From: Desulfobacterales bacterium
Lineage (GTDB): Bacteria > Desulfobacterota > Desulfobacteria > Desulfobacterales > B30-G6
Assembly: GCA_029939655.1 (NCBI GenBank)
Contig: JAOZSO010000001.1
Coordinates: 1 to 34,229 of the forward strand
Direction of reading: 5' to 3'
DNA length: 34,229 nt
Each line of letters starts with the position of its first letter. The first letter of the stretch is position 1. The notes beneath the pieces were generated by a model. That model searched no databases. It was given only the letters and a program-made list of their open reading frames with translations, and had not been told where the DNA came from. The translations under genes were made by a program, and so were the position numbers. Shown here one piece after another: positions 12,226 through 32,762 of the stretch.

Positions 12226-12229
12226 TAAC

Positions 12230-15015: not shown

Positions 15016-15022
15016 CCCGGAC

Positions 15023-17631: not shown

Positions 17632-19068
17632 TTATATTTCACATTCATTTATAATTGCTTCCATTGCATCTTCTGCTCCTTCTGGTAAAGCCATCGGCTT
17701 GTGGTTCTTGATAAGAAATCTGGCTTTTTCATACGCCCTTTCGATAATGTCTTTCCCACCGATTTTTTTAACCCAGGTATCGCGGTCCATACAATCAAAC
17801 AAATCTCTTTGGGACATGCTTTTCATGTGTTTTAGTGTGTGTTTGCTAGATAAATATTCACCACCAGAGCTTACGCTTTGAATTGTTTCTAAAGCTATTG
17901 TCTCATCAGAAATGTCCATCCCATTTTTTATCCATTTTAAATTCCTTAATTGTTCAGCATCCAGAATCAGCTTTGCAAAATCAAACGTCAGTCCTGATTC
18001 AATAGAACCACATCCATAGATGACATTAGATCCGGCCAGTAATGCTATAGCCGTATTTGTGTTAAATTCATAAGCGGCCTGTACATCCATAAGTTTACTT
18101 CCGCTAACACCTGAACCACACCAACTTGGGATTCCATAATATTGCGCCATTTTTGCAGTCCCAACATTCAAAACACCACATTCTGGGGCAGCGACAGCAG
18201 GATTACCGAGTTTCAAATCCATAATTGTTCCCACACTACCATAAATGAAAGGTGTACTTTTTGAAGTAAGTTGGGTCAAAACTAAAGAACCAAGAAGTTC
18301 TGCATTCTGTACAACCAGGGTTCCAGCGATTGTCGTGGGCGCCGTAGCACCACTCAATGGCATCGTAATTGAACAAACCACAACACCTAATCTTGAGCAT
18401 TCTATAATGACATCACAGCAATTCTTAGAGAGTGTGAGTGGGCTAGTTGGGCAAACGGTGGTGGACACACAAGGACGCTTAATAAAATTCTCCATGCCAC
18501 CGACGCAGGCCGCTGCCATCTCAACAATCTTTATTGAGTTTCTCCCACTAAAAAAACCATGAAAGGCATGCTTACTTGTGTTTGAAACAATTGCTTCGTA
18601 ATTATGCATGGACTGCGTCTCGGCAGGCTTATCCCGTGATCCCATACATTTTTCAATAATTGCAAATTCATCTAACGCATCAGCCAATCGTGTTGCATCC
18701 CCTAAATCTTTCTTTGTACAAGTTCTGTGTTTTAAAGTGTAAAGGTCGTTAGTATAAGAATTTTCACCAAATAGTGTATAGCAGGAACTTCCAGGTTCGA
18801 TAAGATGATCGTGTTTGGGATCCCTTCCATACAAAACAAACCGTTCTGGTGCCCATTGAACACAATCACTAACTACGGATGGAGGAATCTTAACAACAAA
18901 ACAATCCCCCTTTTTAACAATCTCCGATCCAGCACCATGAAAGATCTCTGTTGCCTCATCTGACTCAATTTTTATCCCCGTATTTTCCAATATCTTAATA
19001 GATGCATGATGAATTCTATGAAGTTGTTCATTTGTAATCCCTTCTATTTGATATCCGAGCATATACAT
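17632..19068 (-). CDS. MttB-superfamily (COG5598) methyltransferase, non-pyrrolysine paralogue; probable quaternary-amine:corrinoid methyltransferase
   Basis: 478 aa, uninterrupted. It is colinear with the Pyl-type mttB below (CPTSPL, MPLSGATAPTTIAGTLVVQNAELLG, APECG). A sense Val codon (18106-18108) sits where mttB has TAG. Confidence 0.85.
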   Translation of the reverse strand: MYMLGYQIEGITNEQLHRIHHASIKILENTGIKIESDEATEIFHGAGSEIVKKGDCFVVKIPPSVVSDCVQWAPERFVLYGRDPKHDHLIEPGSSCYTLFGENSYTNDLYTLKHRTCTKKDLGDATRLADALDEFAIIEKCMGSRDKPAETQSMHNYEAIVSNTSKHAFHGFFSGRNSIKIVEMAAACVGGMENFIKRPCVSTTVCPTSPLTLSKNCCDVIIECSRLGVVVCSITMPLSGATAPTTIAGTLVVQNAELLGSLVLTQLTSKSTPFIYGSVGTIMDLKLGNPAVAAPECGVLNVGTAKMAQYYGIPSWCGSGVSGSKLMDVQAAYEFNTNTAIALLAGSNVIYGCGSIESGLTFDFAKLILDAEQLRNLKWIKNGMDISDETIALETIQSVSSGGEYLSSKHTLKHMKSMSQRDLFDCMDRDTWVKKIGGKDIIERAYEKARFLIKNHKPMALPEGAEDAMEAIINECEI

Positions 19069-19134: not shown

Positions 19135-19788
19135 TTATTCAACGCTAAGCAATTCTTTAATTTTTTCTACGCCATCTTGAGCATTTTTTGCATACGCATC
19201 AGCTCCAATTCTCGCGGCCCAACGGGGAGTTACCGGTGCACCGCCGACAACTGTTTTAAAGCGATCTTTTAATCCTTCAGATTTAAGCACAACTTCTAGG
19301 TCCTTCTGTCGCGGCATGGTTGTGGTAAGCAGCGCGCTGGTACCAATAATATCCGCATCAATCTCTATGGCTGTTTCAATTATTTGCTGGGTGGCCACAT
19401 CCCTCCCTGCATCATGGACCTTAAATCCATTTGCTTGCATCAGTGAAACAACAATGCATTTTCCAATATCATGAACGTCACCCTGGACTGTAGCAATAAG
19501 AACTGTCCCTTTTTCTTGCTTAGCGTTAATCCCGCCACTTAAAGTTTCATTCACCATGTCGGTAACCACCTTCATGATTTCCGCAGCTTGTATAAGCTCT
19601 GGTAAAAACAACCTGCCGCGTCCAAACAAGTCACCCGTTGCGTTAATTCCTGGAATAAAACCTTCCTCCATCAGTTCCAGTGGGCTGCCCCCATCACTGA
19701 GATAATTTTTTACGATCTCAATGGCCCTGTCTTTGTTTGCTTTAATTAGAACTTCCGCCGTTTCTTCGATAATACTTTTATCGATCAT
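19135..19788 (-). CDS. Corrinoid (cobalamin-binding) methyl-carrier protein, MtbC/MttC-like
   Basis: 217 aa. B12-binding DxHxxG motif GDVHDIGK, plus SALLTTT and GGA elements. An N-terminal helical cap domain is present. Confidence 0.9.
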   Translation of the reverse strand: MIDKSIIEETAEVLIKANKDRAIEIVKNYLSDGGSPLELMEEGFIPGINATGDLFGRGRLFLPELIQAAEIMKVVTDMVNETLSGGINAKQEKGTVLIATVQGDVHDIGKCIVVSLMQANGFKVHDAGRDVATQQIIETAIEIDADIIGTSALLTTTMPRQKDLEVVLKSEGLKDRFKTVVGGAPVTPRWAARIGADAYAKNAQDGVEKIKELLSVE

Positions 19789-19847: not shown

Positions 19848-21221
19848 CTAACGTCTGAAACGGTTTAGGGAATTAATTTCAATATCCAACAGTTTTGCAA
19901 TATTATATTTTGCTTCAATGCCTTTTGGAGAACCCATGGTGGAATAGACACTCCCTATCTTATGGTCTTCTCTAACATCACTCATCACAGCAGCATCAGT
20001 AAGCTCATTAACACTAATTCCTAATTTGTCCGCCACATACTTTTTTGCATCTTTTATTTTCATAGCCCGGGTCATTTGCATGCGTGCGACCAGATCTCCG
20101 GAAGTACGCATTCCGCCCATGCCTGCGGCCATTGCATGTGGTATCGCCACCCCTGCGGGGTCTCCGTCGCCAACCTACAACCCGTCCAATCGTGTAATCT
20201 CTAAATGTGCCTTTGAAGCCATGGTCACTGCGTCAATCGGTGGTGTATAACACAATGGTAAACCGCCCACCCCCATTCCTAAATTCGCATGTACAGGAAT
20301 TTCAGCAGCGTCAACACAGGCTTTTGTGAATGTAACCGCACGTGCAATGTTCCAGGGAATAGACTCGGTAGGATCTGTATTTATCGCTGGTCCGAATATG
20401 TCCACACCAGCTTCTTGCGCGACCTTAACCTGTTCGTGGGGATAGAGCCCGGCAAGGCGTACACCGTTGTGAGAAATCTCCCCATGCATTCCCAAGATAA
20501 ATTCCCCGGCCATTCCGATTTCGACACACATACTTGGGTACTTCTCCTTCAGCTCCTGCACCGCTAATAATGTTGCTTTAAAATCAGGATCACCAGAACC
20601 CCCAACCGTATCGAAATTTATCCCATCCGCTCCAGCTTCAAATAGGGAGGATGATACATAAACCATATCACGAACAGAATGCTCGATAGCTTCATCGTAT
20701 GCATCACGCGCTTCTTTGATTTTTCCCTGAGGAATCAGTTCTGCCGGGTTGGTGACAGGCCCATCCGGTTTGGTGTAAAGACCGAGATTTGGCATTGATC
20801 CATAAAAGACAGGAGCCACCATGAGCAATTGTGCTTGCTCCATGAGAGGAACATTTTCTCGAACGATGTGTTTTGCTTGCTTGAAGCTGTAATCGAGGTC
20901 TGATAGCTCAGTGGTGTCAGCTCCGAAACAACGCTCATAGGTCTGAAGCACTTGTAAGCGACCGGTATTTATGCCAAGCCTTCCGATCTTATTGCTTCCA
21001 CCATCATAGGTCATTATAACCTCATACCCTTTTTCAACCCCTGATATGCTACAACTGCATTTGCATATTTCAAACAAATGTTTTCGTTCATCATCAGTGA
21101 GAGGCTGTATCTCTGCCCGATCTGCGGCATCCAGGGTTCCATCTTCAATGTCTTGAATTAGTTCTTTTTCATCTATCTCAACAGAAAAACCATCTCCCAT
21201 GCGGGTTATTACTTTGCTCAT
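19848..21221 (-). CDS. mtbB: Dimethylamine:corrinoid methyltransferase with an in-frame UAG (predicted pyrrolysine) at 20175-20177
   Basis: Track ORFs 20175..21221 and 19848..20150 are in the same frame. Translation across the gap reads [42 protein letters not shown], and the TAG is the only stop. The combined 457 codons are colinear with Methanosarcina MtbB (about 467 aa) along the whole length. AAGGAGG SD precedes the ATG at 21221. Confidence 0.9.
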
Positions 21222-21235: not shown

Positions 21236-22702
21236 TTATATTCCTAATTCCTTTTCCGCTTCCTCCACAATTGAGTGAATTCTCTTTTGGATATCATCCG
21301 CTATTGGATCAGGAGTATGAGTCTCCAGAATTTCTATGGCTTTCTCCGTTGCTTTTTTGTATATATCCGGCTTGCCGGCTTGTTCCCAATCTTCACGCAT
21401 CGTTCGGTCAAAAACTCTGGGCGCAGATATAGATCTCATGTGGCGTAGCGTGCTATCATGGCTGAGGAAGTCTTTCCCGATTCCAATTTCTTTTATAGCA
21501 TCCACAGCCAGGGTTTCATCATTTACCGCTATCCCGTTCACCACATGCCTGACCATTTGTGCAACTTCATTATCCAACACAAGTTGTCCAAAATCAAAGG
21601 TCATTCCCATCTCGATCATTCCCATGCCGTATATCAGGTTGGCCCCTGCCAACGCCGGCAATAACGACGTCATCGTTTTTTCATGACCGGTTTGGAAATC
21701 TGTAGCTTTTGTATCGCCCTACCCGCCGGCAACAAAGCTTGGCAATGCATAATAACGAGCCAATCTCGCAACAGCCGCACTGATCATTGCGCATTCTGGG
21801 GATCCCACCGATGCGCTCGCCATTCTTAAATCCATGGCTGTCGTCGAACTGCCGTATATGACCGGTCCACCCTTTATAGTGAGCTGGTTAAGCAAAATTC
21901 CAGATAGAATTTCGGCGTTATGGATTACCAATGTCCCGGCAAGTGTTACCGGAGACGAGCCTCCCGCCATTGCCATGGAGAGAATATTGACACCGATTCC
22001 GTGTCTAGCTGCCCCCATGATGACTTCACAGGTATCTTTAACCAATTTAAGCGGGCTCACCGGACAAGTGATCGTTGTGTAGATGGGTCTCTGCCTTAAC
22101 GCATCCTTGCCACCAGCGATTACGGTAGCCATTTCCACTATTTTATCGAGTTGGTAACCTGAAAATGCTCCCATGAAAAGGTGTTTACTTGTATTGTTGA
22201 ATGAATCTTCCGCATTATAAATCTGGGCAATTTCCTGAGGAACTTCATGTGCTCCAACGGCCCGTTCATAGACATCGATCTCGCTCAGATAGTCAGCCAA
22301 CTTGGCTGCATTGGCCACATCTTTTCTGGTGGGCTTTCTTCTTTCACCCGTGTAGGGATCGATTACAAAAACGCCCTCTCCAAAAGTAGTAAACCCGACT
22401 CTATTGCTTTCTAATATGGTATCGTTTTTTGGATTGCGACCTGCCAGAAAGAGCTTTGGCGGAGCACTGCGAATGGCATCTTCCACTATATATGGAGGAA
22501 TTTTTACGATTTTCTTTTTTGCATTAACGGCGGCACCACCACCATCAAAAATATCCAGAGCTTCCTCATCTTCAACAAATATTCCAGTTTTCTCAAGAAT
22601 CTCTAATGTTGCCAAATGAATTTCGTCGCACTCCTCTTCAGTAAATGAATTTAGGCCGAATCCGCCACTGAGCTTCTTCCCTGCATGTAGGTTTCGCTTC
22701 AT
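21236..22702 (-). CDS. mttB: Trimethylamine:corrinoid methyltransferase with an in-frame UAG (predicted pyrrolysine) at 21719-21721
   Basis: Track ORFs 21719..22702 and 21236..21673 are in the same frame. Translation reads [45 protein letters not shown]. The combined 488 codons are colinear with Methanosarcina MttB (about 495 aa), and the TAG is the only interruption. Confidence 0.9.
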
Positions 22703-22790
22703 TGATAAGCATCCTTATTTTATGTAACTGTTTGGAATGGAAGTTAAACTGTGTTCTTCTATCGGTTTTGGCGTCCCAGGCATAGAAGAA

Positions 22791-22822
22791 CTGGAGCCTT
22801 GTTATTAACAACAAGGCTCCAG
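22791..22822 (-). terminator. Probable intrinsic terminator hairpin after the solute-binding-protein gene
   Basis: Perfect 13-bp stem ctggagccttgtt / aacaaggctccag with a 6-nt loop, beginning 6 nt after the TAA stop. On the minus strand it is followed by UUCUUCUAUG, a partial U-tract. Confidence 0.55.
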
Positions 22823-22828
22823 CTTTGA

Positions 22829-24412
22829 TTATGCAAACCACCATCGTTCATGGATTCTACGACCGTCATACATGGCATTGGAGGCAATGGTGTTATACCT
22901 CAATTTACTGCTTGCTACATAAACAAAGTTACTAAAAATGGGAATGATTGAGGAACCTTCATCATGGACAATTTTTTGCATTTCCCAATACATATCGCGA
23001 CGCTTGACTTCATTCAGCTCAGATCGAGCCTCTTTGAGGAGCTTGTCGAATCGTGCATTCTTCCAATAGCTCTCATTCCAGTTTGCTGATCCAGCATATA
23101 CAAGCGATAACATCCAGTCTTCTGTGGGCCGACCATACCAGAAACTCCAGCACATGCCTTTCTTCATCCATACATCCTCCCAATAACCGTCATTCGGTAC
23201 CTTTTTAGTCTTGAGTTTCACTCCTGCTTTTTCGGCAGACTCTTGGAATAAGAGAGCCGAGTCTATTGCCCCGGCAAAAGCTGTATCAGCGGCATAAAGC
23301 TCGAAAGTATGATCTAACATACCGGCTTTCTTCAAGTAAAATTTAGCCTTATCCGGATCATAAGTCCTCTGAGGCAATTCAGAGTTGAAATATCGGTTCT
23401 TCTGTGAGATTGGATGATCGTTTCCAAGAGAACCGTAACCACGTAAAACCTGTTTTAACATCAACTCACGATCAAAAGCGTATTTTAATCCCAATCGGAC
23501 ATTATTATCATTGAAGGGCTTCTGGGTCGTCAACATAGGCATGGTATAGTGGGCATACCCTGGAACGTCTATAATTTGCACATTTTTATTCTTTTTCAGA
23601 AATTGAACCGTCTTAAGATCAGGTCGGGCAAATACATCTAATTCGCCGGTTACTACAGCAGAGGTCCTGGATACGACATCCGGTAAGGCCATCGTTTCAA
23701 CTTCATCAAAATAGGGAAGTCCCTCCTTGAAATAATTTGGGTTACGCGTAGTGAAAGCCCGGACACCTGGCTCCCAACTTTTAAGGATAAAGGGGCCTGT
23801 TCCCATCCCTTTTTCAAAATCGGTTGTCCCGTTTGGTACGACCATAAGATTCACTTCTGCCAAGAAATAGGGGAAGTCGGCATTCCCTGATTCAAGTGTG
23901 AAGATCACCTGGTTGTTACCATCTTTCTTTATGTCCGTAACAGGCTTAAGAATACCTTTTGCCGGAGATTTGGTCTTTTCGGTTCTACTAAGATTTATGG
24001 AATAGATAACGTCATCAGCATCCAGCGGCTTGCCGTTATGAAATTCGACGCCTTTTCGGAGGTTGAAAATCCATTGTTTTGCATCCGGTGTTGACTCCCA
24101 GTTTTCCGCAAGCTCCGGGGTAGCAACACCTTTTTCATCAATTACAATCAACTGGTTTCGACATTGTTGACTGACCAATTGAGGCATAATATCTGTCAAC
24201 AATGTGATATCTAGGCTCTCTGTTGTGGCACCACTGTGGCTCCCAATTCTCAAGCGGCCACCCTGTTTGGGGGTTGCGGCATGTGCTGTGCTATTAGCCA
24301 ATAAAGGCGACATAGCCACAGAAAGCCCCATAGCAGACACGTAGGCTAAGAAATCGCGGCGAGTAATTTTCCCTTGAAATAGCAAACGTTCCAACTCCTG
24401 CAATTTTTCCAT
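22829..24412 (-). CDS. ABC-transporter substrate-binding protein, family 5 (peptide/opine/nickel type), with a Tat-type signal peptide
   Basis: 527 aa. Twin-arginine motif TRRDFLAYVSAMGLSVAM...AHA. The length and sequence character are those of DppA/OppA-like SBPs. AAGGAGG SD is present. Confidence 0.8.
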   Translation of the reverse strand: MEKLQELERLLFQGKITRRDFLAYVSAMGLSVAMSPLLANSTAHAATPKQGGRLRIGSHSGATTESLDITLLTDIMPQLVSQQCRNQLIVIDEKGVATPELAENWESTPDAKQWIFNLRKGVEFHNGKPLDADDVIYSINLSRTEKTKSPAKGILKPVTDIKKDGNNQVIFTLESGNADFPYFLAEVNLMVVPNGTTDFEKGMGTGPFILKSWEPGVRAFTTRNPNYFKEGLPYFDEVETMALPDVVSRTSAVVTGELDVFARPDLKTVQFLKKNKNVQIIDVPGYAHYTMPMLTTQKPFNDNNVRLGLKYAFDRELMLKQVLRGYGSLGNDHPISQKNRYFNSELPQRTYDPDKAKFYLKKAGMLDHTFELYAADTAFAGAIDSALLFQESAEKAGVKLKTKKVPNDGYWEDVWMKKGMCWSFWYGRPTEDWMLSLVYAGSANWNESYWKNARFDKLLKEARSELNEVKRRDMYWEMQKIVHDEGSSIIPIFSNFVYVASSKLRYNTIASNAMYDGRRIHERWWFA

Positions 24413-24538
24413 CGTTTTTTCCTCCTTTGAATTTAAAGAGTTATGCTACTGATGAGTTTTCGAACAACAAACTTCTCAATTCCCATTAAAATGAAAGTAA
24501 TTAATTGCATAAACAAGTATTTAAATCGATATAACTTC

Positions 24539-25837
24539 TCAGGAAATTACAGCAAAAGAATCATCCATGATTTGGAGTGACTGATCTATCTGGACTTTAG
24601 TCATGACAACAGAAGGGACAAGCCGAATTGAATTGCCAAACCAGCCTTGTCCAGCTGGCAAAATCAAACCTCTCTTACCAGCCTCTTTTTTCAACCTAAT
24701 TGATTCCTCTTTTGCAGGCTCTTTGGTTTTACGGTCTTTTACGAGCTCGACCCCTATCATTACACCTTTACCGCGAACATCGCCTATGACATCATATTTG
24801 TCTTGTAATTTCCTTAATCCATTCATCCAATATTTTCCCAATTCTTCGGCACGTTCCCATGGCTTTTCTTTCATTATCGTTTCAATACTTGCCAGCGCAG
24901 CAGCCGCCATCAACGGGTTACTTCCAAAAGTTGTATAGTATAGAGGCGGCTCCGGCTCCGCAAATGCTTGGGCTATTTCGTCAGTGGTTAAAAGCGCCGA
25001 TATTGGCAGCCCCCCCCCTAATGTTTTTGACATCGTGATCATATCAGGAACGATTCCATAATGCTCAAAACAAAACTTTTTGCCGGTGCTGCCGAATGCA
25101 GTAAAGATTTCATCCATGAAGAGAAGAATATTGTGTTTATCAAGAATTTTTTTGATTTCCTGAAAATAACCATCCGGGGCTGGTATATTGCCGGCGGTTC
25201 CTTGTATGGGTTCTGTTACGAAAACGGCCACTTCGGAGGATGTATCATAATACAAAGCATCTTCCAGCATTTTGGCACACTGTAAGTTACAAGCTGGATA
25301 TTCCAAGCCAAGCTGGCACCGATAGCAATAATACGAAGGGATGCGCGTCACCCCTGGTAACATAGGTCCCATCCCTTTTTTTAATGGTGCAAAACCTAAC
25401 AGACTGCGAGCACCATGAGTTCTCCCGTGAAAGTCGCCATATAGTGATACCATTTCATATTTTTTAGTGTATTTTTTAGCTAGAAATAGAGCGACCTCAA
25501 CTGCTTCAGCCCCTGCATTTGCAAAGTAAACCTTGTTAAAAGGTTCAGGTACCACGGATAGAAGCTTTTCAGCCAGGTCCCTGGCGGGTTTTGTATTATA
25601 GTCGATAGCTAAGGAATACATTTTCCCGACTTGTTCTTTCACAGCCTCAACTACCGCAGGGTGGTTATAGCCGATCAATGTCGCACATCCATGGGAACAA
25701 AGTAAGTCGATATATTCTCTTCCTTCCGAATCTTTCAACACAGCCCCTTTTGCCTCGACAAAAATAATTTCTTCATCCCCAAAATGGTGTCGAACACATG
25801 GCAAAAAATAATTTCCGTTTTCACTTTTTATTTCCAT
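24539..25837 (-). CDS. Class-III (omega-amino acid type) PLP-dependent aminotransferase
   Basis: 432 aa. GAEAVE, FMDEIFTAFGSTGK and the PLP-lysine context DMITMSKTLGGGLPISA are typical of the acetylornithine/GABA aminotransferase family. Confidence 0.85.
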   Translation of the reverse strand: MEIKSENGNYFLPCVRHHFGDEEIIFVEAKGAVLKDSEGREYIDLLCSHGCATLIGYNHPAVVEAVKEQVGKMYSLAIDYNTKPARDLAEKLLSVVPEPFNKVYFANAGAEAVEVALFLAKKYTKKYEMVSLYGDFHGRTHGARSLLGFAPLKKGMGPMLPGVTRIPSYYCYRCQLGLEYPACNLQCAKMLEDALYYDTSSEVAVFVTEPIQGTAGNIPAPDGYFQEIKKILDKHNILLFMDEIFTAFGSTGKKFCFEHYGIVPDMITMSKTLGGGLPISALLTTDEIAQAFAEPEPPLYYTTFGSNPLMAAAALASIETIMKEKPWERAEELGKYWMNGLRKLQDKYDVIGDVRGKGVMIGVELVKDRKTKEPAKEESIRLKKEAGKRGLILPAGQGWFGNSIRLVPSVVMTKVQIDQSLQIMDDSFAVIS

Positions 25838-25864
25838 TGTTCTGTCCTTTCCGCAGTTAAGATA

Positions 25865-27628
25865 TTAACCAAAATCTAAATCATCCACCGGGATACCATC
25901 CTCATTCCAACCTCTAAGCTGGTAATAATTCTGAATCATTTTTTCCAGTTCTTCCGGTTTAATAACCTTCCCACCACTTATGGGCTCGGAGAAATATCTC
26001 GGTGGCAGGGTATCATCCTTTTTCGATATGCCTTCTCGCAGGTTAAACCGTCGGCTAAGATTACGAATGTTCGCCGCAATTTCTTTAAGACCATCATGGT
26101 TAAGTTTCATGCCCATTGTGCCTTGGATTATTTTGGCCAAACCATCCCAAGCATAGATATCACGATAAAACCTGCAGGTAATAAATGCATCATGCAGCGT
26201 AAGGCGATCTTCGAAATCAATTGCTATTTCAGCCTTACCTTCAATTTCATCAGGTGCTATTTGCCCGGACAGTTCAGCCTTGAAAACAGTGCTTCGTAAA
26301 TGGCATGCGCCTCTATCCGAAGTCGCATACGCCAGGCCCATTCCTTTTAGAACTCTTGGATCATAAGCTGAAGGCTCTAAACCTTTAACGTGAATGGCTA
26401 TATCTTTCATACCCCATTCTTGAGCTGCATGTCGTATCCCTTCAGCCAAAACAGCTCCTATGCCACGTCGATAGGCAATATCATTTAGTAATGAAACAAT
26501 ACCGTCTACATCTCCGTAGTCATACTTTTCTTTGATTTTGCCTCGTCTGGAAGCTTCTATAGTAAAAGCGGCTAAATTGCCTGCGGTAATTGTATCCAAG
26601 CCCAACCGATCACAGACATCGTTGAGGTAGACGATCTCATTAATATTAGGAATCTCGCAGAGGCCCCCAAAAGAATATATTGTCTCAAATTCGGGGCCTT
26701 CAAGTTTTAAGCCTTTATGCCTACCATCCCTTACTTCGGTTAACCTTCCGCAGGCCATTAAGCATTTAGCACAAGCATGGGGCTTGACATTACACTGTTC
26801 ATGAAGACCTTCGGCCGAAATATTCTCCCAACCGTCAAGAGTACCTTTAGACCAATAACGCGTGGGAAATGAACCGATTTTATTGAGAACACTCACCAGA
26901 GCCGGTGTGCCCTTAGTCTTAAAACCTTGTATGACAGGATTTGTCTTTCTTTCAGAACTTATCTGAGACCATAGTTCTTCCAATATTTCAGGTTCGGCTA
27001 CCTCTTTTTGGGCGGACCCGCTAAAGGCCATACCCTTAATATTTTTAGCGCCTAAAACCGCACCAATACCTGTCCTTCCGGCAGATCGCCAGTAATTGTT
27101 TGCCACTAACGAAAAACGCACAAGGTTTTCACCCGCAGGACCTATAACCATGATACCGGATTGTTTACCTACAAGATCACGAACAGCGTCTTGGGCGTCA
27201 TAAACCTCCATCCCCCAAATATTTCCCGCTTCGTGAAAAGTTATGCCGTTGTCCGTAATTTCCAGAACAGTCGGGCTTGATGCAGCGCCCCGCAATATGA
27301 AAGCATCGTACCCAACATGCCCCATGAATTCTGCAACAGACCCCCCCGAATAGGACTCAGCATATATCCCTGTTTGAGGTGATTTACTGAATAAACCATA
27401 CCGACTGGAACCCCATACTTTGGTATTTACAGTCGGGCCTAACGCGATCACCACGTGATTATCCGGAGAAAAAGGATCAATATTTGGCTTGTTCTTTTTT
27501 AAGAGCAGGTACGTGGCAAGACCCTTTCCTCCTATCAGAGACTCATAGATGCTGTCTGGGATTTCTATAGTGTTGCTGGTTTCATGCGTCAGATCAATTT
27601 CCAATACTTTCCCGTAAACCCCCTTCAT
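25865..27628 (-). CDS. aor: Aldehyde:ferredoxin oxidoreductase family protein (tungstopterin / 4Fe-4S)
   Basis: 587 aa. The N-terminus GKVLEIDLT..., the CxxCxxxC cluster motif (CAKCLMAC) and the overall AOR-family architecture are present. Confidence 0.85.
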   Translation of the reverse strand: MKGVYGKVLEIDLTHETSNTIEIPDSIYESLIGGKGLATYLLLKKNKPNIDPFSPDNHVVIALGPTVNTKVWGSSRYGLFSKSPQTGIYAESYSGGSVAEFMGHVGYDAFILRGAASSPTVLEITDNGITFHEAGNIWGMEVYDAQDAVRDLVGKQSGIMVIGPAGENLVRFSLVANNYWRSAGRTGIGAVLGAKNIKGMAFSGSAQKEVAEPEILEELWSQISSERKTNPVIQGFKTKGTPALVSVLNKIGSFPTRYWSKGTLDGWENISAEGLHEQCNVKPHACAKCLMACGRLTEVRDGRHKGLKLEGPEFETIYSFGGLCEIPNINEIVYLNDVCDRLGLDTITAGNLAAFTIEASRRGKIKEKYDYGDVDGIVSLLNDIAYRRGIGAVLAEGIRHAAQEWGMKDIAIHVKGLEPSAYDPRVLKGMGLAYATSDRGACHLRSTVFKAELSGQIAPDEIEGKAEIAIDFEDRLTLHDAFITCRFYRDIYAWDGLAKIIQGTMGMKLNHDGLKEIAANIRNLSRRFNLREGISKKDDTLPPRYFSEPISGGKVIKPEELEKMIQNYYQLRGWNEDGIPVDDLDFG

Positions 27629-27705
27629 AATTTTCTTCCTTTTATCTTATTTGCGTTAATATGATGAGTTAAACGATTCTTAATAAACCTGCTGAAATAC
27701 CCTGA

Positions 27706-28017
27706 CTACGGTGGATCATACATGTATAAGTTAAGATCTTTAGATAAACTCAGCTCCAAAATATTCATTAGCATTTTCTCTTTATGCTTTGGAGACAATT
27801 TAACTACTAGACAGGTTCTGTGATCTTCTTTCTCGCTGAAAAAGTTGTACTTAATGCCTCCTTTATTAAATACTGAGAGAAAATCAATTATTTCTTGAAA
27901 ACGGGTCCTTGGTTCACCATAGGTGTTTTGTTCAAAAATTAGATAGCTGTATTCAGGATCTAATCTGTCGTTGATACTTCCGAAACGAGCAAACACTGAT
28001 TTAGTGTGTTGATTCAT
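27706..28017 (-). CDS. Hypothetical small protein (103 aa)
   Basis: It lies in the same orientation between the dehydratase and aor. ATG start, TAG stop. I recognise no motif, so coding status rests on ORF length and operon position only. Confidence 0.4.
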   Translation of the reverse strand: MNQHTKSVFARFGSINDRLDPEYSYLIFEQNTYGEPRTRFQEIIDFLSVFNKGGIKYNFFSEKEDHRTCLVVKLSPKHKEKMLMNILELSLSKDLNLYMYDPP

Positions 28018-28100
28018 TTATTAAGACTTTATAGATAATCATTGTTCACAGGCTTTAGAGCACCAACCTATAGAAACAATAAATCCTCATTTAATATTTA

Positions 28101-29759
28101 TCACTCATACGCCAATACAGCACCTTTATCGGCCGAGCTTACCAAGAGCGAATATCTTTTTAAAAACTTACTACATTCTTTTTTAATTGGCTTAAATTTT
28201 TTCATACGTTCAGCAAGTTCAGTATCAGTTACATCAAGGTGTAGTTTTCGAGCCGGTATGTCTATTTCGATAATATCTTCCTCTTCTACTAAACCAATGG
28301 GACCACCAACAACTGCCTCAGGAGAGACATACCCAATGCAAGGTCCCCGTGTTGAACCGGAAAATCGACCATCAGTCACCAAGGCGACACAATCTCCTAG
28401 GCCCAATCCCATCAATATTGAAGTCACCATGTGCATCTCTCGCATCCCTGGCCCCCCTTTGGGCCCTTCGTAGCGGATGACCATCACGTCCCCGCTCATG
28501 ATTTGATCACCCATCAGAGCTTTTACAGCATCTTCCATGGAGATAAATATTCGGGCCGGGCCCTTGTGGGTCATCATCTTTTCATGGACACCGCTTTGTT
28601 TTACCACAGATCCGTCAGGTGCGAGATTACCATACAAAATGGCGAGGCTTCCTTCATGATGAAGAGGAGAATTTAAGGGTCTGATTACATCTTTATCGAG
28701 GACATGAACCGATTCGATATTTTTCCTCATCGTTCGTCCTGTTACCGTAGGTACGTTGGTATCGATTCGATCTCCAAGTTCCTTTATTACCGCCGGAATT
28801 CCCCCTGCTTCCTCTAACCGCAACAGTGGATATTTCCCTGATGGTATAATATCGCAAATATGCGGTGTTGTTTTGCTGATGAAATCGAGTTTTTCCAACG
28901 TATAATTGAAACCGGCCTCGAGCGCGATAGCTGGGATGTGAAGTGCTAAATTTGTTGAGCCCCCTATGGCCATCGCGACTGTGGTGGCATTTTTTATAGC
29001 GATTTCAGATATTATTTTTGAAGGGATTAAATTCTCATTTACCATCTGTACAATTCGAGATCCAGATTGACGAGCCAGTCTTGTCTTCTTGGTACTTTGT
29101 GCATGGGCTGTCCCACAACCTGGAAGCGTCATGCCTAGGGCCTCTGCAATACATGACATTGTGTTTGCTGTTGCCATCATCGCACAACTCCCCGGTCCGG
29201 GTAGGGCGCACTGTTCTATTTCAGCCAATTCGTCTTGAGATATATCACCGCGTTTAGTTTGCCCGATAAATTCACGCATGCTTGTTAGTGTAATGTTTTC
29301 ATTTTCTCTGAATTTACCAGGGTACATGGGGCCGCCAGTGACGATAATCGTTGGAATATCAAGCCTTAAAGAAGCCATGATATGTGCCGGCACGATTTTA
29401 TCGCATGAACACATCATGACCATTGCATCGAATCGATGACTTTCCACCATTAGTTCGATAGAATCAGCAATGATCTCACGGCTAGGTAGAGGATATCTCA
29501 TACCGATGTGACCTTGACACAAACCATCGCAGATAGCGATTGTGTTGAACTCAATGGGTATCCCTCCAGCTTCACGGATTCCTTCCTTAACTGATACAGC
29601 AAGCTCACGGAGATGATAGTGACCGGGCACGATCTCGTTCCATGAATTTACCACCGCAATGATGGGCTTTCCAAAATCCTCTTTGCTAAATCCCACGGCA
29701 TGCAGCAACGCTCGGTGAGCCGATCTTTCCAAGCCGGTATAAAGTTCTTTGCTTCTCAT
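28101..29759 (-). CDS. ilvD: IlvD/Edd-family dehydratase (dihydroxy-acid dehydratase-like)
   Basis: The N-terminus [23 protein letters not shown] matches the IlvD pattern. Fe-S ligand contexts CDG, CDK and [15 protein letters not shown] are present. The track start at 29783 is a TTG. The ATG at 29759 is preceded by AGGGAGG. Confidence 0.85.
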
Positions 29760-29879
29760 CGTAACGAATTCCTCCCTATTCAAACTACAGTTAAAGCTCC
29801 ACTACCAAAGATAAGAACGTCTTAATAAAATAGAATAAAGCATCTATATTTTAATAAGGTGAATGACCAAATATATATC

Positions 29880-29896
29880 AGCAAAAACAATGCCAA
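29880..29896 (-). promoter_or_regulatory. Sigma-54 (-24/-12) promoter upstream of the dehydratase operon
   Basis: The minus strand reads TTGGCATTGTTTTTGCT, that is TGGCAT-N5-TTGCT with the canonical GG-N10-GC spacing. It lies about 100-120 nt upstream of the ilvD-like start and immediately downstream of a sigma-54 enhancer-binding-protein gene. Confidence 0.75.
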
Positions 29897-30091
29897 TAGC
29901 AGCTGGTTTTATAATGTGTGTAATTTTAGCAGGTTAAGAAATAGAAGGCTAAAAATAATTTGGCAGATAATACATATATGAATTGAAGGGCATATAACAT
30001 GTTGAGATATCTACAGATATTAATTATACAAATATGAATAAATAATAAATATTAAATATCTTATTGATTCAGTATGTTGTAATTAATTAAT

Positions 30092-31846
30092 TCATTTCTG
30101 AATTAAACCGAATGAAAGCCCATGTTTTTTCAACTTGCGGAAAGCGGTTGGCTGGCTGATCCCCAGAAGCTTTGCAAGCTCGTGAGTTGTTTTGCATTTT
30201 GGCATGGCGCTTTTCAGTACCTCCTTTTCAAACGATAACAGCGAGTCCGATAAATTCTTTTTTCGTGTTGCTGAAGAGTTGCTTTTTGTAAGTAGTGCGA
30301 AGGATCCTTTCAATGCCTGTAGGATCAATACATCTAAATTTCTTTCTTCGCTGATGACTACTGCTTGTTTAATCACATTCATCAACTCGCGAACGTTTCC
30401 CGGAAATGGATAGGATTGAAGCGCTTCTACAGCCTTGGCTGTTATCCACCGTTGCACACCATAGGCTTTATTATATTTTTCAAGAAAATGTGTAGTAAGT
30501 TCAAATATGTCATTCTGCCGTTCGCGAAGGGGTGGAATTTTTAAGGTAAAGGAATTTAAACGATAGTACAAATCCTCTCGAAATTTATTGATTTTTGTAA
30601 GGTTGCCCAAATCACGGTTTGTTGCAGCGATGACGGTACAATCTATGGCTATGGTTTTTGTTCCGCCCAGACGCGTGATGATATTGTCATCAAGATATTT
30701 CAGGAGCTTCGCCTGAGTTGTTAAGGACAAATCACCTATTTCATCTAAAAAAAGAATTCCCCCCTGAGCCAATTCGAACAAACCAGCCTTACCTTCTTCG
30801 CTAGCTCCAGTAAAAGCACCTTTCTCGTAACCAAAAAGTTCCGCCTCCAAAAGGTTTTCGGGCACAGCTGCGCAGTTGATTTGAATAAGTGGCGCCTTTT
30901 TTCTTTTGCCGTTCTGGTGTATGAATTTTGCCAAAAGCCCCTTTCCGGTCCCGGACTCTCCCAAAATTAAAATATTGGACACCTTTAGTGTTGCAAGTTT
31001 CAAAGCAATTCTCAGCACCTGTCTCATCTCCTGACTTTTTGCAATAATTTCCTGCTGCTTCAACTCTATCACACTAAGTTCATTGAGTTTGTCCTTGTAT
31101 TTATTTGCAACCAAACGAGTTTCATTTAATTGCTTTTGTATTGCATTTAGCTGTGAAAGATCTCGTTCATTGAGCACCACCATATAAATATCACCGTTCT
31201 CATTAAAAACTGGTGTTCCGGTTACCAATAAATGCTTTTCTGTTTTCTGGACGTATACAAGTAAGCTTACTCGACGTTTTGTTTTTAGTATCTCCATTGT
31301 AACACTTCGATCTATTATACCCTTATCAACCATCATAGAAACATTTCTACCAATGATATCCTTTTCCTTCCATCCATTTAGTTGTTGAGCTGCTTTGTTC
31401 ATGCGGATAAAATTCCCCCGGCCATCCAAAATAACAAGACCGTCGGAAGAAGAGGAGAAAACCGTTTCAAATTGATCGGTTAGCTGTTGGTATGATTCTA
31501 ACCTTTGAGCTGAATTTTCAAACTGCTGCATTTTCTGGAAGTTGCTAACAGCGCCAACAACCATTCCGGCTTTTCGAATAGCGGTAACGTTTACAACAAG
31601 ATGAACATTTTTCCCCCGAATATGGACACCAATTTGGGGCTTACCGGTTTTCAGACAGTCGACGATATGATGACTGGTTAATGGCAACACTTCAATGACA
31701 TTAGAGCCAATAACTTCGTTTTTCTTTAATCCCAATATCCTCATAGCTTTCTGATTGACTAATACGATACAACCGCGAGCATCTGCAGCGATAACACCGT
31801 TACTGGTTGAATTAAATATATCCTGAACGGTAATTAAATGTGACAT
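30092..31846 (-). CDS. Sigma-54-dependent transcriptional activator with two N-terminal PAS domains and a C-terminal Fis-type HTH
   Basis: AAA+ core with GESGTGKGLLAKFIH and the GAFTGA motif (EKGAFTGA), plus ESELFGYE-like ELFGYEKG. The C-terminus HELAKLLGISQPTAFRKLKKHGL is an HTH. Confidence 0.9.
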   Translation of the reverse strand: MSHLITVQDIFNSTSNGVIAADARGCIVLVNQKAMRILGLKKNEVIGSNVIEVLPLTSHHIVDCLKTGKPQIGVHIRGKNVHLVVNVTAIRKAGMVVGAVSNFQKMQQFENSAQRLESYQQLTDQFETVFSSSSDGLVILDGRGNFIRMNKAAQQLNGWKEKDIIGRNVSMMVDKGIIDRSVTMEILKTKRRVSLLVYVQKTEKHLLVTGTPVFNENGDIYMVVLNERDLSQLNAIQKQLNETRLVANKYKDKLNELSVIELKQQEIIAKSQEMRQVLRIALKLATLKVSNILILGESGTGKGLLAKFIHQNGKRKKAPLIQINCAAVPENLLEAELFGYEKGAFTGASEEGKAGLFELAQGGILFLDEIGDLSLTTQAKLLKYLDDNIITRLGGTKTIAIDCTVIAATNRDLGNLTKINKFREDLYYRLNSFTLKIPPLRERQNDIFELTTHFLEKYNKAYGVQRWITAKAVEALQSYPFPGNVRELMNVIKQAVVISEERNLDVLILQALKGSFALLTKSNSSATRKKNLSDSLLSFEKEVLKSAMPKCKTTHELAKLLGISQPTAFRKLKKHGLSFGLIQK

Positions 31847-31883: not shown

Positions 31884-32762
31884 TTATAGCATACGGCTTG
31901 TTGTCGACTGAATATGCGCGAGTACAATTTCAGCAAGAGGTTTTCCAAGACCAGGAGGAGTATCGTGCCCCATACCCTCTATCAATTTAAATATTGCGCC
32001 TGGAATCAGATCGGCGGTCTCCTTGCCTTTTTCCGGTGGAATCAGCAGATCATCGGTACCGTGAACTACCAAAACCGGCACTGAAATCGTTTTGACCCGA
32101 TCCCTTATGTTTTTCATTGATAACATGGCAAGCAACTGACGGTTGGCACCATCGGGTGAGTAGCATCGATCAAAGGTCGCTGCAGCCATCCGACGTGAGT
32201 GATCATCACTTTCGAAATACTTTTTGCTTCCAAATTGTCGAACATACTCGACCCACTCCTGAATGAAAACTTTCCGGGTTTTCCGAACGGACCACAACTC
32301 GTCGAGGAGTGCGAGATCAATAATTTGGCTGAAAGAACTGATTAGCGTCAGCGAAAGCGCCCGGGAAGGGCATTTAGCCGCCAGCAACTGAGCGATGAAA
32401 CCGCCCATGGAATTACCGATGATGTGGGCTGTTTCGATATCAAGCCCATCCATCAGAGCGATGACATCCTGTGCCATATCGTCCATTGTGTAGGGTGGAT
32501 CAATCTCCCCTCCTGCTGCAACCTGCCGCTTCAGCACTTCAAGTTCCTGGTCAGCGATGTGATCAATTTTTCCGGAAAGGCCGGTATCCCGATTGTCGAA
32601 TCGTATTGTTCGAAATCCCTGATTCGAAAGCGCTTCGTAAAACGATTCAGGCCAATGGATCAGTTGCATCCCTTGCCCCCGGATCAGAACTATGACTCCT
32701 TCCTCCCCACCACCGGATGTTTCATAGGCGATTTCAACCCGGCCGGTTTGCAAAACACCCAT
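31884..32762 (-). CDS. Alpha/beta-fold hydrolase
   Basis: 292 aa. Nucleophile elbow GNSMGG, and the late Asp and His contexts HGTDDLLIP and GMGHD. GGAGG SD is present. The gene lies 37 nt upstream of the regulator gene. Confidence 0.8.
   Translation of the reverse strand: MGVLQTGRVEIAYETSGGGEEGVIVLIRGQGMQLIHWPESFYEALSNQGFRTIRFDNRDTGLSGKIDHIADQELEVLKRQVAAGGEIDPPYTMDDMAQDVIALMDGLDIETAHIIGNSMGGFIAQLLAAKCPSRALSLTLISSFSQIIDLALLDELWSVRKTRKVFIQEWVEYVRQFGSKKYFESDDHSRRMAAATFDRCYSPDGANRQLLAMLSMKNIRDRVKTISVPVLVVHGTDDLLIPPEKGKETADLIPGAIFKLIEGMGHDTPPGLGKPLAEIVLAHIQSTTSRML

Follow-up and report, generated by a model that had tools for sequence, protein, structure and literature searches.

The genes from a PAS-containing sigma-54 activator through a non-Pyl mttB paralogue may form one sigma-54-dependent island for methylated amines in the window, a 34,229-nt stretch of a Desulfobacterales contig (JAOZSO010000001.1); we put the probability of this reading at about 0.45. 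It builds on what the sequences show: gene identities, intact catalytic motifs, the layout of promoter and binding sites, and synteny. That the two halves are coupled we infer from gene order only, and all substrates named below are putative.

Activator, promoter and the five genes that follow

31846..30092, - strand: sigma-54 enhancer-binding activator gene, 584 aa
30023..30039, no strand: distal candidate activator-binding site, ATAATTCA-N4-TGAATTAT-type palindrome, pair conserved in L007 and L013
29967..29983, no strand: proximal candidate activator-binding site, located some 80 bp before the -24 element
29895..29880, - strand: -24/-12 sigma-54 promoter TGGCATTGTTTTTGCT, exact TGGCAY-N5-TTGCW match
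29759..28101, - strand: IlvD/Edd-family dehydratase, 552 aa, ATG at 29759, RBS AGGGAGG
28017..27706, - strand: ORF for a 103-aa small protein, accessory
27628..25865, - strand: aldehyde:ferredoxin oxidoreductase (AOR), tungsten/molybdopterin AOR family, AFOR_N and AFOR_C domains
25837..24539, - strand: class-III (fold-type I) aminotransferase (AT), core member, Aminotran_3 (330 bits)
24412..22829, - strand: periplasmic family-5 solute-binding protein (SBP5), SBP_bac_5 (253 bits)

All six genes from the activator to SBP5 are located on the - strand. The identities and positions of the gene set listed in the initial annotation (IlvD/Edd dehydratase, a 103-aa unknown, AOR, aminotransferase and SBP) were confirmed. 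The activator, described there as a two-PAS sigma-54 activator, indeed has a PAS-PAS-AAA+-HTH architecture: Pfam searches found two PAS domains, Sigma54_activat, AAA_lid_14 and HTH_50 and no receiver domain, and the motifs GAFTGA (residue 343), Walker A GESGTGK (296) and Walker B DEI (368) are intact. Its top NCBIfam match is PrdR; this assignment was rejected because the score of 399 bits is far below the cut-off of 795. L007 and L013 have activator orthologues (73-75% identity) in the same place, and homologues with 41% identity are found upstream of MtbB in L012 and L115.

A near-consensus -24/-12 promoter had been noted between the activator and the five genes. TGGCATTGTTTTTGCT is in fact the sole exact TGGCAY-N5-TTGCW match on either strand of the window (0.09 matches expected from shuffles; any match in 8 of 100 shuffles). 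It is located 120 bp upstream of the IlvD ATG, within the spacer of 332 bp that follows the activator gene. Alignment places its counterparts in L007 (TGGCACAGGTATTGCT) and L013 (TGGTACTAGTCTTGCT, one change) at the corresponding position. The two candidate palindromes are 56 bp apart (start to start) and align across all three loci, with the same pair at the same spacing.

The IlvD start in the mechanical ORF listing (TTG 29783) was rejected in favor of the ATG preceded by the RBS. IlvD scores 733 bits to TIGR00110 (cut-off 618) and 738 bits to NF002068 (cut-off 644). The closest relatives recovered outside the island are from Hadarchaeia (57-58% identity), near AOR and glucose-dehydrogenase-like genes, and the identity to IlvD of the Desulfobacterales MAG L101 and the unassigned metagenome contig L106 is 45-47%, with a Desulfobacterales IlvD at only 47%. 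An 88% identical copy is found in L007. IlvD is absent from L013, and neither IlvD nor AOR was found in the 1.3 kb available upstream of AT in L107. IlvD is an accessory island member outside the conserved core.

The 103-aa protein gave no match in Pfam and NCBIfam searches and falls into only two clusters among 5.8 billion proteins. Its structure model (pLDDT 73) shows a ferredoxin-like beta-alpha-beta-beta-alpha-beta fold, for which a search of the PDB returned nothing at E<=0.001, and there is no obvious RBS upstream of the ORF. L013 carries a counterpart of equal length (41% identity) at the same position. The gene is missing in L007; the island can thus lack either IlvD or the 103-aa protein.

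The AOR is a single subunit of 587 aa that aligns with 9mqx (384 bits) and with Pyrococcus furiosus AOR (1aor, 341 bits); identity to solved enzymes is 35-45% as estimated by eye from the alignments. CxxCxxxC, the fourth Cys and residues matching Glu313 and His448 all align. The aminotransferase reached no NCBIfam equivalog cut-off. It contains the catalytic Lys271, Asp242, Glu209 and Arg139 (in FHGRT), and the closest solved structures are a class-III enzyme from P. horikoshii (7vno), dialkylglycine decarboxylase and amino-acid racemases. Both enzymes are intact, with full sets of catalytic and cofactor residues.

SBP5, the structured spacer and the methyltransferase genes

22755..22823, - strand: two tandem stem-loops in the SBP5-mttB spacer, from folding and conservation
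22702..21236, - strand: Pyl-MttB, trimethylamine (TMA) methyltransferase, in-frame TAG at 21721..21719
21221..19848, - strand: Pyl-MtbB, dimethylamine (DMA) methyltransferase, in-frame TAG at 20177..20175
19788..19135, - strand: corrinoid methyl-acceptor protein, B12-binding and B12-binding_2 domains
19068..17632, - strand: non-Pyl MttB-superfamily methyltransferase (MttB2), MTTB domain (299 bits)

SBP5 carries a twin-arginine signal (TRRDFL), and no permease or ATPase genes are found within the island. The binding protein had been counted with the aminotransferase genes. It appears to belong with the methyltransferase half instead, since in L119 and L120 homologues with 50-52% identity immediately precede non-Pyl MttB-family genes. 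An AorABC-like set also lies directly upstream in L120. The L121 homologue, in the same identity range, has an alpha/beta hydrolase and a corrinoid protein as neighbours.

The initial annotation placed a hairpin terminator after SBP5 and treated the methyltransferase genes as a second operon. The hairpin is real: a stem of 13-15 bp (22823..22790) begins immediately past the SBP5 stop codon and is retained through compensatory changes in L007, L116 and L013. Terminator is too strong a name for it, because in the window and L007 its U-rich tail is paired, serving a second stem-loop as 5' arm. The spacer folds with a minimum free energy of -38.1 kcal/mol (z = -4.7; L007 is similar with z = -4.8). 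No sigma-70-like or sigma-54-like site was detected on the coding strand of the 126-bp spacer. Given the lack of a detected promoter and the paired U-tract, we infer that IlvD to MttB2 is probably one co-transcribed unit rather than two operons. Stem 1 could still terminate some fraction of transcripts.

The in-frame TAG codons are accompanied by PYLIS elements above the Rfam gathering score (PYLIS_3, 60.8 bits in mttB; PYLIS_2, 69.4 bits in mtbB), and both proteins reach equivalog level for TMA/DMA methyltransferases. Pyl-MttB scores 427 bits to M. barkeri MttB and conserves Gly110, Met249, Pyl334 and Tyr364, residues whose roles have been described (PMC9842639). It looks like a genuine TMA enzyme by these sequence features. 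MttB2 has Val at the Pyl position in the alignment and scores 282 bits to M. barkeri MttB vs 188 bits to MtgB; it is present in L007 and L107 and absent from L013. No mtmB, MT2 or ramA gene is located within the island, nor was MtmB found in the examined flanks of any bacterial locus in this study. The Olavius delta-1 symbiont encodes six MtbB, two MttB and zero MtmB (PMC1976440, Table 3), and Kivenson et al. reported that marine Deltaproteobacteria which use Pyl have methyltransferases for TMA and DMA (PMC8318568).

Conservation of the island and contexts of the aminotransferase

A constant core of AT-SBP5-MttB-MtbB is shared by the window, L007, L013 and L107, usually together with AOR; L107, whose upstream end is cut off, enters the core comparison only. 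The unit activator...AT-SBP5-MttB-MtbB holds its boundaries in three genomic settings: acyltransferase/hydrolase genes on one side and lipA/gcv on the other in the window, a tRNA synthetase gene and gyrB in L007, and DNA polymerase B and the contig end in L013. The island moves as a unit. As the four loci are closely related, they represent roughly one evolutionary event. L012 is an independent second architecture that joins AT to Pyl-MtbB behind a PAS/sigma-54 activator, in the order activator - small protein - LIV-type ABC - AT (76% identical) - Pyl-MtbB - amidohydrolase - Pterin_bind - pylS - corrinoid - pylBCD. The proposed link to the methylamine module is supported by these loci. Of the gene set, AT-SBP5-MttB-MtbB co-occurs in each of the window-type loci, IlvD and the 103-aa gene only in some. 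In L115 the activator homologue and a small ORF are located directly before mtbB-mttB, so that the methyltransferases by themselves are plausible sigma-54 targets. In four to five other mtbB loci of Desulfobacterota (L109, L111, L112, L113, L115) there is no AT inside 10 kb.

The AT clade recurs beside AORs of three subfamilies or beside SDR/ADH/ALDH genes, and the suggested logic of amine to aldehyde (AT) to acid (AOR) holds in this respect. A transporter component is found within ~5 kb of AT, mostly directly adjacent, in 11 of 12 contexts examined, the exception being the archaeal locus L010 with a distant MFS gene only. SBP5 is the only such component near AT in the window. ATs with 71-78% identity occur in methyltransferase-free contexts (LIV-type ABC, NMT1-type ABC, Dpp-type, hydantoinase), and the clade is thus not dedicated to methylamines. 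We found no paper that describes the gene set, in agreement with the initial annotation, which knew of no such pathway.

Possible functions and relation to known systems

In the island reading, the PAS/AAA+ activator would bind the palindrome pair, which lies 80-140 bp before the promoter, and, upon sensing its effector, open the -24/-12 promoter. Transcription would run from IlvD through the small protein, AOR, AT and SBP5, and continue across the structured, non-canonical spacer into mttB-mtbB-corrinoid-mttB2. A methylated amine would be captured in the periplasm by SBP5, and Pyl-dependent MttB and MtbB would move methyl groups onto the corrinoid protein and from there to tetrahydrofolate and into the Wood-Ljungdahl pathway, whose genes lie elsewhere. 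Since no MtmB is present, the leftover primary amine (monomethylamine or larger) would not be demethylated further here; the class-III aminotransferase would convert it to an aldehyde, which the tungsten-type AOR would oxidize to a carboxylate with reduction of ferredoxin. IlvD would act in an accessory reaction, on a product of the 2,3-dihydroxy-acid type. If the substrate is TMA, monomethylamine would go to formaldehyde and formate. Against this version, our literature search found no class-III aminotransferase using methylamine, a cluster-C binding protein is odd for a molecule as small as TMA, and IlvD and the non-Pyl MttB get no explanation. If it is a larger N-methylated amine, as the initial annotation suggested, an omega-amino compound would go to a semialdehyde and an acid. 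Against this second version, Pyl-MttB scores as a TMA enzyme and keeps the M. barkeri active-site residues, and a 2026 paper calls MttB-family enzymes stringently specific (PMC13044021). The island may show how methylated-amine use is completed in these uncultured marine sulfate-reducer relatives without the usual third methyltransferase.

It is also conceivable, if rather doubtful, that two independent modules travel together. AT and AOR (with or without IlvD) would then process an imported primary amine or omega-amino acid (e.g., GABA, 5-aminovalerate, beta-alanine, a diamine or taurine) in the manner of gabT/gabD, davT/davD or rocD/rocA, with AOR taking the place of an aldehyde dehydrogenase in the anaerobe, and a separate TMA/DMA unit would share the niche and possibly the regulator. 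The many methyltransferase-free clusters of the 71-78% identical ATs, with their own transporter and often SDR/ADH/AOR, argue for this, as do the absence of AT from several mtbB loci and the strong stem-loop between SBP5 and mttB; the hydantoinase/lactamase-type context and the FHGRT arginine fit an omega-amino-acid aminotransferase. However, both halves stay together across different genomic settings, the differently ordered L012 again joins AT to Pyl-MtbB, and no promoter was detected before mttB; if SBP5 belongs to the methyltransferases, the island lacks a transporter for such an amine. Chance adjacency of housekeeping or biosynthetic genes (a branched-chain IlvD, an ArgD/GabT-like AT and AOR as a general aldehyde scavenger) is very improbable. 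Although IlvD exceeds the curated dihydroxy-acid dehydratase cut-offs and the AOR family has broad substrate specificity, the surroundings contain no further ilv or arg genes, the genes in question follow a dedicated and conserved sigma-54 activator and promoter, the otherwise identical island of L013 has no IlvD, IlvD is only 45-47% identical to those of L101 and L106, and AT stays under every equivalog cut-off.

An unlikely alternative is a carnitine/gamma-butyrobetaine-type route, in which MttB2, Pyl-MttB and Pyl-MtbB would in that order remove all methyl groups to yield an omega-amino acid, which AT and AOR would convert to a dicarboxylate, with IlvD acting on a hydroxy-acid intermediate. 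Three methyltransferases would match three methyl groups, MtmB would not be needed, and AT is an omega-amino-acid-type enzyme. Immediately upstream of the activator are genes for a choline/carnitine O-acyltransferase homologue and an alpha/beta hydrolase, and the L121 hydrolase beside the SBP5 homologue and corrinoid protein is 61% identical. Diverged MtbB paralogues in L109 (57% and 72% identical) and the six MtbB copies of the Olavius symbiont (PMC1976440) also fit. Yet removal of only a single methyl group is reported for the phosphocholine/MthB (PMC12155760) and gamma-butyrobetaine/MtyB (PMC8604678) pathways. Furthermore, Pyl-MttB shows the full TMA-enzyme signature, the L013 island has no non-Pyl MttB, the acyltransferase and hydrolase are not neighbours in L007, and paths through malate or succinate semialdehyde need no IlvD-type dehydratase.

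The closest known control systems are the sigma-54/PAS-controlled omega-amine operons, such as Bacillus subtilis RocR with rocD (ornithine aminotransferase) and rocA (P5C/semialdehyde dehydrogenase); gabT/gabD and davT/davD are comparable aminotransferase/dehydrogenase pairs. The island resembles RocR-type operons in its PAS-AAA+-HTH activator with no receiver domain, upstream sites and -24/-12 promoter, and in a class-III aminotransferase followed by an aldehyde-oxidizing enzyme and an uptake component. It differs in that the aldehyde oxidizer is a ferredoxin-linked tungsten-type AOR in place of an NAD(P) aldehyde dehydrogenase, AT falls short of every curated equivalog cut-off, and the island continues into Pyl-dependent methyltransferases, with an IlvD-type dehydratase in some variants.

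Quaternary-amine clusters of the MttB superfamily typically have transporters of BCCT or ProX type, whereas the uptake component of the island is a family-5 SBP. As in the non-Pyl MtgB/MtpB/MtcB/MtyB/MthB clusters (PMC8604678, PMC12155760), a non-Pyl MttB paralogue is found with a corrinoid protein, and the uptake component adjoins a methyltransferase; the island paralogue is closer to true MttB than to MtgB (282 vs 188 bits), and no AT/AOR for the product skeleton is described in the MtyB (PMC8604678) and MthB (PMC12155760) systems, which are reported to remove one methyl group. With the methanogen MttB/MttC, MtbB/MtbC and MtmB/MtmC and the Deltaproteobacterial Pyl systems (PMC8318568, PMC1976440) the island shares TAG and PYLIS in mttB and mtbB, a cognate corrinoid protein and the M. 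barkeri active-site residues in MttB. It differs in having no mtmB, MT2 or ramA, and the association of such genes with a sigma-54 promoter, AT, AOR and SBP5 is absent from the literature searched. The AOR is a single subunit with no adjacent ferredoxin or FAD subunit, in contrast to the AorABC-like set of L120. Like P. furiosus AOR/FOR and Aromatoleum AorABC, it keeps the two domains, the Fe-S cysteines and the catalytic Glu/His, and its likely role, as in tungsten AORs of anaerobes, is to oxidize aldehydes from amino-compound catabolism.

Sigma-54 activator, promoter and probable transcription unit

The region at 22829-31846 carries six co-oriented genes on the minus strand, which encode a sigma-54 activator, an IlvD/Edd dehydratase, a 103-aa ORF product, an aldehyde:ferredoxin oxidoreductase (AOR), a class-III aminotransferase (AT) and a family-5 solute-binding protein (SBP5). 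The regulatory features are as follows.

Activator gene, minus strand: 584 aa, two PAS domains, a sigma-54 interaction AAA+ domain and a C-terminal HTH
29895..29880, minus strand: -24/-12 promoter TGGCATTGTTTTTGCT (TGGCAT-N5-TTGCT), exact consensus match
29967-29983 and 30023-30039, no strand assigned: palindrome pair, candidate activator sites, 80-140 bp upstream of the promoter

The activator scores 213 bits against PF00158 and its motifs are intact (GAFTGA at residue 343, Walker A GESGTGK at 296 and Walker B DEI at 368). The pattern TGGCAY-N5-TTGCW has a single exact match on both strands of the 34 kb, with 0.09 expected from shuffles. Alignment of the spacers between the activator and the first gene placed the element at the same position in two related islands, L007 (a Desulfobacterales MAG, AOR 85% identical) and L013 (a metagenome contig, AOR 78% identical). 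It is an exact match in L007 and carries one change in L013, with the GG and GC dinucleotides retained. The -24/-12 promoter predicted in the initial annotation was therefore borne out by every available test (unique match and conservation in the two islands). The palindrome ATAATTCA-N4-TGAATTAT is present in two copies per spacer, exactly 56 bp apart from start to start, in the window, L007 and L013. A distance of 80-140 bp upstream fits the usual geometry for enhancer-binding proteins (about 80-150 bp). By sequence, the activator, promoter and candidate upstream sites have the make-up of a sigma-54 enhancer-binding regulon.

The spacer between the SBP5 gene and mttB is 126 bp long and folds into two tandem stem-loops (MFE -38.1 kcal/mol, z = -4.7). 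The L007 spacer adopts the same fold (z = -4.8). Stem 1 is retained with compensatory changes in L007, L013 and the comparison locus L116 and is not retained in the related island L107 or in L117. A hairpin terminator had been proposed here; the stem-loop is indeed present, but a clean intrinsic terminator is rejected since in the folding the U-rich tract after stem 1 pairs as the 5' strand of stem 2. Neither a sigma-70-like nor a -24/-12-like site was detected on the coding strand of the spacer, and Rfam found no riboswitch in the spacer or the rest of the six-gene region. In L115, a methyltransferase cluster of different gene order, a PAS/sigma-54 activator (41% identical) and a 90-aa ORF immediately precede mtbB-mttB. 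As no spacer promoter was detected, and from the paired U-tract and the L115 gene order, we infer one sigma-54-dependent transcription unit with a structured element inside it, which could act in attenuation or differential mRNA stability.

Conservation and surroundings of the island

By exact-protein look-ups, the window population was found in several marine metagenomes. Gene orders at other loci were compared with the window.

Gene order at three related islands and one differently ordered cluster
L007: activator - IlvD - AOR - AT - SBP5 - MttB - MtbB - MttB2 (the non-Pyl MttB paralogue)
L013: activator - 103-aa - AOR - AT - SBP5 - SBP5 - MttB - MtbB
L107: SGL-type propeller - AT - SBP5 - MttB - MtbB - corrinoid - MttB2 - Pterin_bind
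L012: activator - small ORF - LIV-type ABC transporter - AT - Pyl-MtbB - amidohydrolase - Pterin_bind methyltransferase - pylS - corrinoid - pylBCD

The gene set put forward in the initial annotation recurs in part. AT-SBP5-MttB-MtbB is the constant core and AOR is usual, but IlvD and the 103-aa gene are individually dispensable. The window island lies between an acyltransferase/hydrolase pair and lipA/gcv, L007 between a class-II tRNA synthetase gene and gyrB, and L013 between a DNA polymerase B gene and the contig end. Since the flanks differ at each locus, the island moves as a unit. L012 is found in a different genome (AT 76%, MtbB 70% and activator 41% identical to the window proteins) and provides independent support for the link between AT and the methyltransferases. 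On an archaeal contig (L010), mtmB and a gene for a URO-D-type methyltransferase lie no more than 8 kb from AT and AOR. At five other Desulfobacterota mtbB loci AT is absent within 10 kb; the association is not universal.

Upstream of the activator are an alpha/beta hydrolase gene (31884-32762, minus strand), directly adjoining, and a choline/carnitine O-acyltransferase homologue (32805-34229, minus strand, cut at the window end; 590 aa in the comparison locus L001), with acyltransferase/hydrolase/activator gaps of 42 and 37 bp. Choline/carnitine O-acyltransferases are an unusual family for a bacterium. The pair was considered as part of the conserved unit and rejected because it is not kept in L007.

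On the other side, a glycine-cleavage cluster (9067-16771, plus strand) is convergent with the methyltransferase genes and encodes an 882-aa GcvT-SHMT fusion followed by GcvH, GcvPA, GcvPB, a LipB-like ligase and LipA; the Rfam scan gave no glycine riboswitch. A 0.7-kb AT-rich stretch without an ORF (16890-17631) separates mttB2 from lipA, and neither a tRNA nor an Rfam match was found in it. The enclosing 1-kb composition interval 17001-18000 has 35% GC as compared with 42-50% in neighbouring sequence. At 1209-2522 and 2614-4017 (minus strand), a 437-aa ORF without a Pfam match adjoins an AAA_14/DUF4143 ATPase gene in a lower-GC segment (about 42%), and the pair may be a mobile or defence-type insertion.

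Properties of the encoded proteins

Downstream of SBP5 on the same strand are mttB and mtbB, each with an in-frame TAG (codon 328 in MttB, codon 349 in MtbB), a corrinoid protein gene and a non-Pyl mttB paralogue. PYLIS elements begin at both TAGs and score above the Rfam gathering threshold (PYLIS_3, 60.8 bits; PYLIS_2, 69.4 bits). Both Pyl proteins reach equivalog level for TMA and DMA methyltransferases. Pyl-MttB can be aligned end to end with M. barkeri MttB (427 bits) and retains Gly110, Met249, the Pyl position and Tyr364 (M. barkeri numbering), the residues singled out in PMC9842639, while Thr111 is replaced by Glu. The equivalog scores and conserved residues argue that TMA and DMA are genuine substrates. 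Scores and residues as orthodox as these do not support demethylation of substituted amines by the Pyl enzymes, as suggested in the initial annotation. The Desulfobacterota locus L109 encodes two Pyl-MtbB paralogues (5701-7068 and 10001-11368), only 57% and 72% identical to the window MtbB, a divergence which suggests that the substrates of the two may differ. In the non-Pyl paralogue (17632-19068) Val occupies the Pyl position, and the protein resembles M. barkeri MttB more closely than the glycine-betaine enzyme MtgB. Its gene still matches PYLIS_3 at 18009-18107 (40.5 bits, gathering score 38), and it may represent a recent loss of Pyl. No tRNA-Pyl gene was found in the window, and no MtmB in the window or in the available sequence, up to 10 kb on each side, of any bacterial locus examined.

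The AOR possesses AFOR_N and AFOR_C domains, the four Fe-S cysteines (CxxCxxxC plus the fourth) and the catalytic Glu/His pair of P. furiosus AOR. These features place it in the tungsten/molybdopterin AOR family as predicted from sequence; no NCBIfam model reached its equivalog cut-off.

The AT has the Aminotran_3 fold with Schiff-base Lys271, pyridine-binding Asp242 and the EPxQG Glu209 invariant in 44 homologues, and it carries the FHGRT arginine. It missed every curated cut-off for GabT, ArgD, BioA, PbfA and class-III racemase equivalogs: the best match was PRK08360 (349 vs 608 bits), and the scores were 321 vs 525 bits for PbfA and 286 vs 507 bits for GabT (TIGR00700). Residues 171-187 (gene at 24539-25837) contain a cysteine quartet, C171-x2-C174...C183-x3-C187, which is invariant in the 44 homologues down to 53% identity and suggests a metal or Fe-S site atypical for class-III aminotransferases. 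A role in pyrrolysine biosynthesis or as an ornithine enzyme, raised by the pyl genes of L012 and a match to 7vno, was rejected because window-type islands carry no pyl genes. Members of the AT clade (63-81% identity) are also found in clusters without a methyltransferase, with LIV-type ABC and AOR; PotD-like ABC, AOR and SDR; NMT1-type ABC; Dpp-type and SDR; TRAP, SDR and TPP enzyme; or hydantoinase A/B and ABC. AT has a transporter component nearby (about 5 kb or less, usually adjoining) in 11 of the 12 contexts examined; the exception is the archaeal L010, with a distant MFS gene only. The partner enzyme of AT in these contexts acts on an aldehyde or a ketone, which supports a general scheme in which an amine becomes a carbonyl compound and then an acid or alcohol. 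The amine-aldehyde-acid order of the initial annotation thus holds in its general form. An alignment-based scan of genome contigs with the 44 AT homologues matched the generic class-III motif and, among the matches listed, returned mostly relatives of 33-40% identity with uninformative context.

SBP5 (SBP_bac_5, 253 bits) has a Tat-type (twin-arginine) signal, TRRDFL. Cognate permease or ATPase genes were not found beside it in the window, L007, L013 or L107. In a metagenome scan, SBP5 homologues of 50-52% identity were located directly upstream of non-Pyl MttB-family genes at L119 and L120. L120 (6126-13146) has the order ferredoxin - AOR - FAD oxidoreductase - SBP5 - MttB-like. L119 (1609-4757 and 7366-9027) has FAD oxidoreductase, SBP5 and MttB-like genes in series on both strands, with an enolase-superfamily gene, URO-D and a second SBP5. 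Near these SBP5-MttB pairs are AorABC-like, aconitase-X, enolase-superfamily and URO-D genes. The two loci look like betaine demethylation clusters with a family-5 binding protein, possibly for proline or hydroxyproline betaine. A further homologue (L121) adjoins genes for a corrinoid protein and an alpha/beta hydrolase; this hydrolase shares 61% identity with its counterpart upstream of the window activator. Given these MttB-family and corrinoid neighbours, SBP5 likely belongs with the methyltransferase side and its ligand is likely a methylated amine. Binding of nickel/cobalt or an opine metallophore was rejected, since NikA and CntA models gave only 71-128 bits against cut-offs of 393-800, and the recurring MttB-family neighbours also disfavour it.

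IlvD starts at ATG 29759 after an AGGGAGG ribosome-binding site and scores above the curated dihydroxy-acid dehydratase cut-offs (TIGR00110, 733 vs 618 bits; NF002068, 738 vs 644 bits). A role in branched-chain amino-acid synthesis is not borne out: the window contains no ilv genes and the gene is missing from the L013 island. Two other IlvD genes were seen, in a Desulfobacterales MAG (L101) and an unassigned metagenome contig (L106), and identity to them is only 45-47%. The closest relatives recovered outside the island, by a word-based and therefore biased search, are from Hadarchaeia (57-58% identity), near AOR, glucose-dehydrogenase-like and LarA-like genes. In three such loci (L094, L095 and L097) the dehydratase gene is 2-3 kb from an AOR gene, and in L097 it also adjoins genes for a glucose-dehydrogenase-like Zn-ADH and a LarA-like protein; these neighbourhoods may represent a non-phosphorylative sugar-acid route. 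We speculate that the accessory IlvD dehydrates a 2,3-dihydroxy-acid product, e.g., glycerate to pyruvate.

The 103-aa ORF has no family match, and a homology search gave only two clusters. Its predicted structure is a generic ferredoxin-like fold without a significant PDB match. L012 (4764-5081) and L115 (9517-9789) carry small ORFs of 90-105 aa, mutually 30% identical, directly after the sigma-54 activator; they are positional equivalents of the 103-aa gene. Similarity to them was undetectable in sequence tests, which gave homology no support.

Proposed route and comparison with known systems

Methylated amines (TMA, DMA, betaines and choline) count among the main carbon and nitrogen currencies of marine sediments and animal symbioses, and were long regarded as 'non-competitive' substrates of methanogens. 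Kivenson et al. described marine Deltaproteobacteria that use Pyl and possess TMA and DMA methyltransferases and the Wood-Ljungdahl pathway, and Pyl-using Desulfobacterales compete for TMA (PMC8318568). The Olavius delta-1 symbiont is reported to have six MtbB, two MttB and no MtmB (PMC1976440, Table 3). Such a complement, with MttB and MtbB and apparently without MtmB, raises the question of what becomes of the last methyl group and the nitrogen. The island offers a concrete, testable candidate answer, with AT and a ferredoxin-linked AOR in the same predicted sigma-54 regulon.

We tentatively propose, with a probability of roughly one in three, that AT and AOR form the missing end of bacterial Pyl methylamine catabolism, in which the primary amine would be removed by transamination and not by an MtmB-type methyltransferase. 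The proposal can take two versions. In version (a), TMA would be converted to DMA and monomethylamine, which AT would convert to formaldehyde and AOR to formate. The orthodox Pyl-MttB and Pyl-MtbB favour this version, as does the absence of the non-Pyl MttB from L013. In version (b), a larger N-methylated amine would yield a primary amine, then a semialdehyde and an acid. It is favoured by the omega-amino-acid type of AT, the large-pocket family of SBP5, the presence of the non-Pyl MttB2 and the accessory dehydratase, and the diverged MtbB paralogues in Desulfobacterota. SBP5 is the sole uptake component of the island, so that AT would most economically act on a compound derived from its ligand. 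In a more radical form, substituted tertiary and secondary amines would be substrates for the Pyl-MttB and Pyl-MtbB paralogues of Desulfobacterota; SBP5 would bind a quaternary or N-methylated amine, every methyl group would be removed from it, and the remaining carbon skeleton would undergo anaerobic oxidation.

The literature searched held nothing relevant on methylamine as a transaminase substrate, or on AOR combined with an aminotransferase and a methylamine/TMA methyltransferase. If true, monomethylamine to formaldehyde to formate would be a methylamine-oxidation route not described in that literature. Coupling of the two halves would provide a new biochemical exit from methylamine metabolism, and TMA-derived carbon, nitrogen and reducing power would be budgeted differently in sulfate-reducing sediments. 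If the halves are uncoupled, the island remains a clear case of AOR taking the place of NAD-dependent aldehyde dehydrogenases in anaerobic amine catabolism.

The initial annotation knew of no described pathway with this gene set, and none was found in the literature searched; nor is an amine-operon half joined to a Pyl methylamine half under one sigma-54 switch, as predicted here, described in it. Each half has known counterparts. The left half would work like the RocR/rocD/rocA and gabT/gabD amine operons, with the NAD(P) aldehyde dehydrogenase replaced by AOR. On the right is the standard Pyl methylamine module, without MtmB, and the missing third methyltransferase of bacterial Pyl users becomes a question open to direct experiments.
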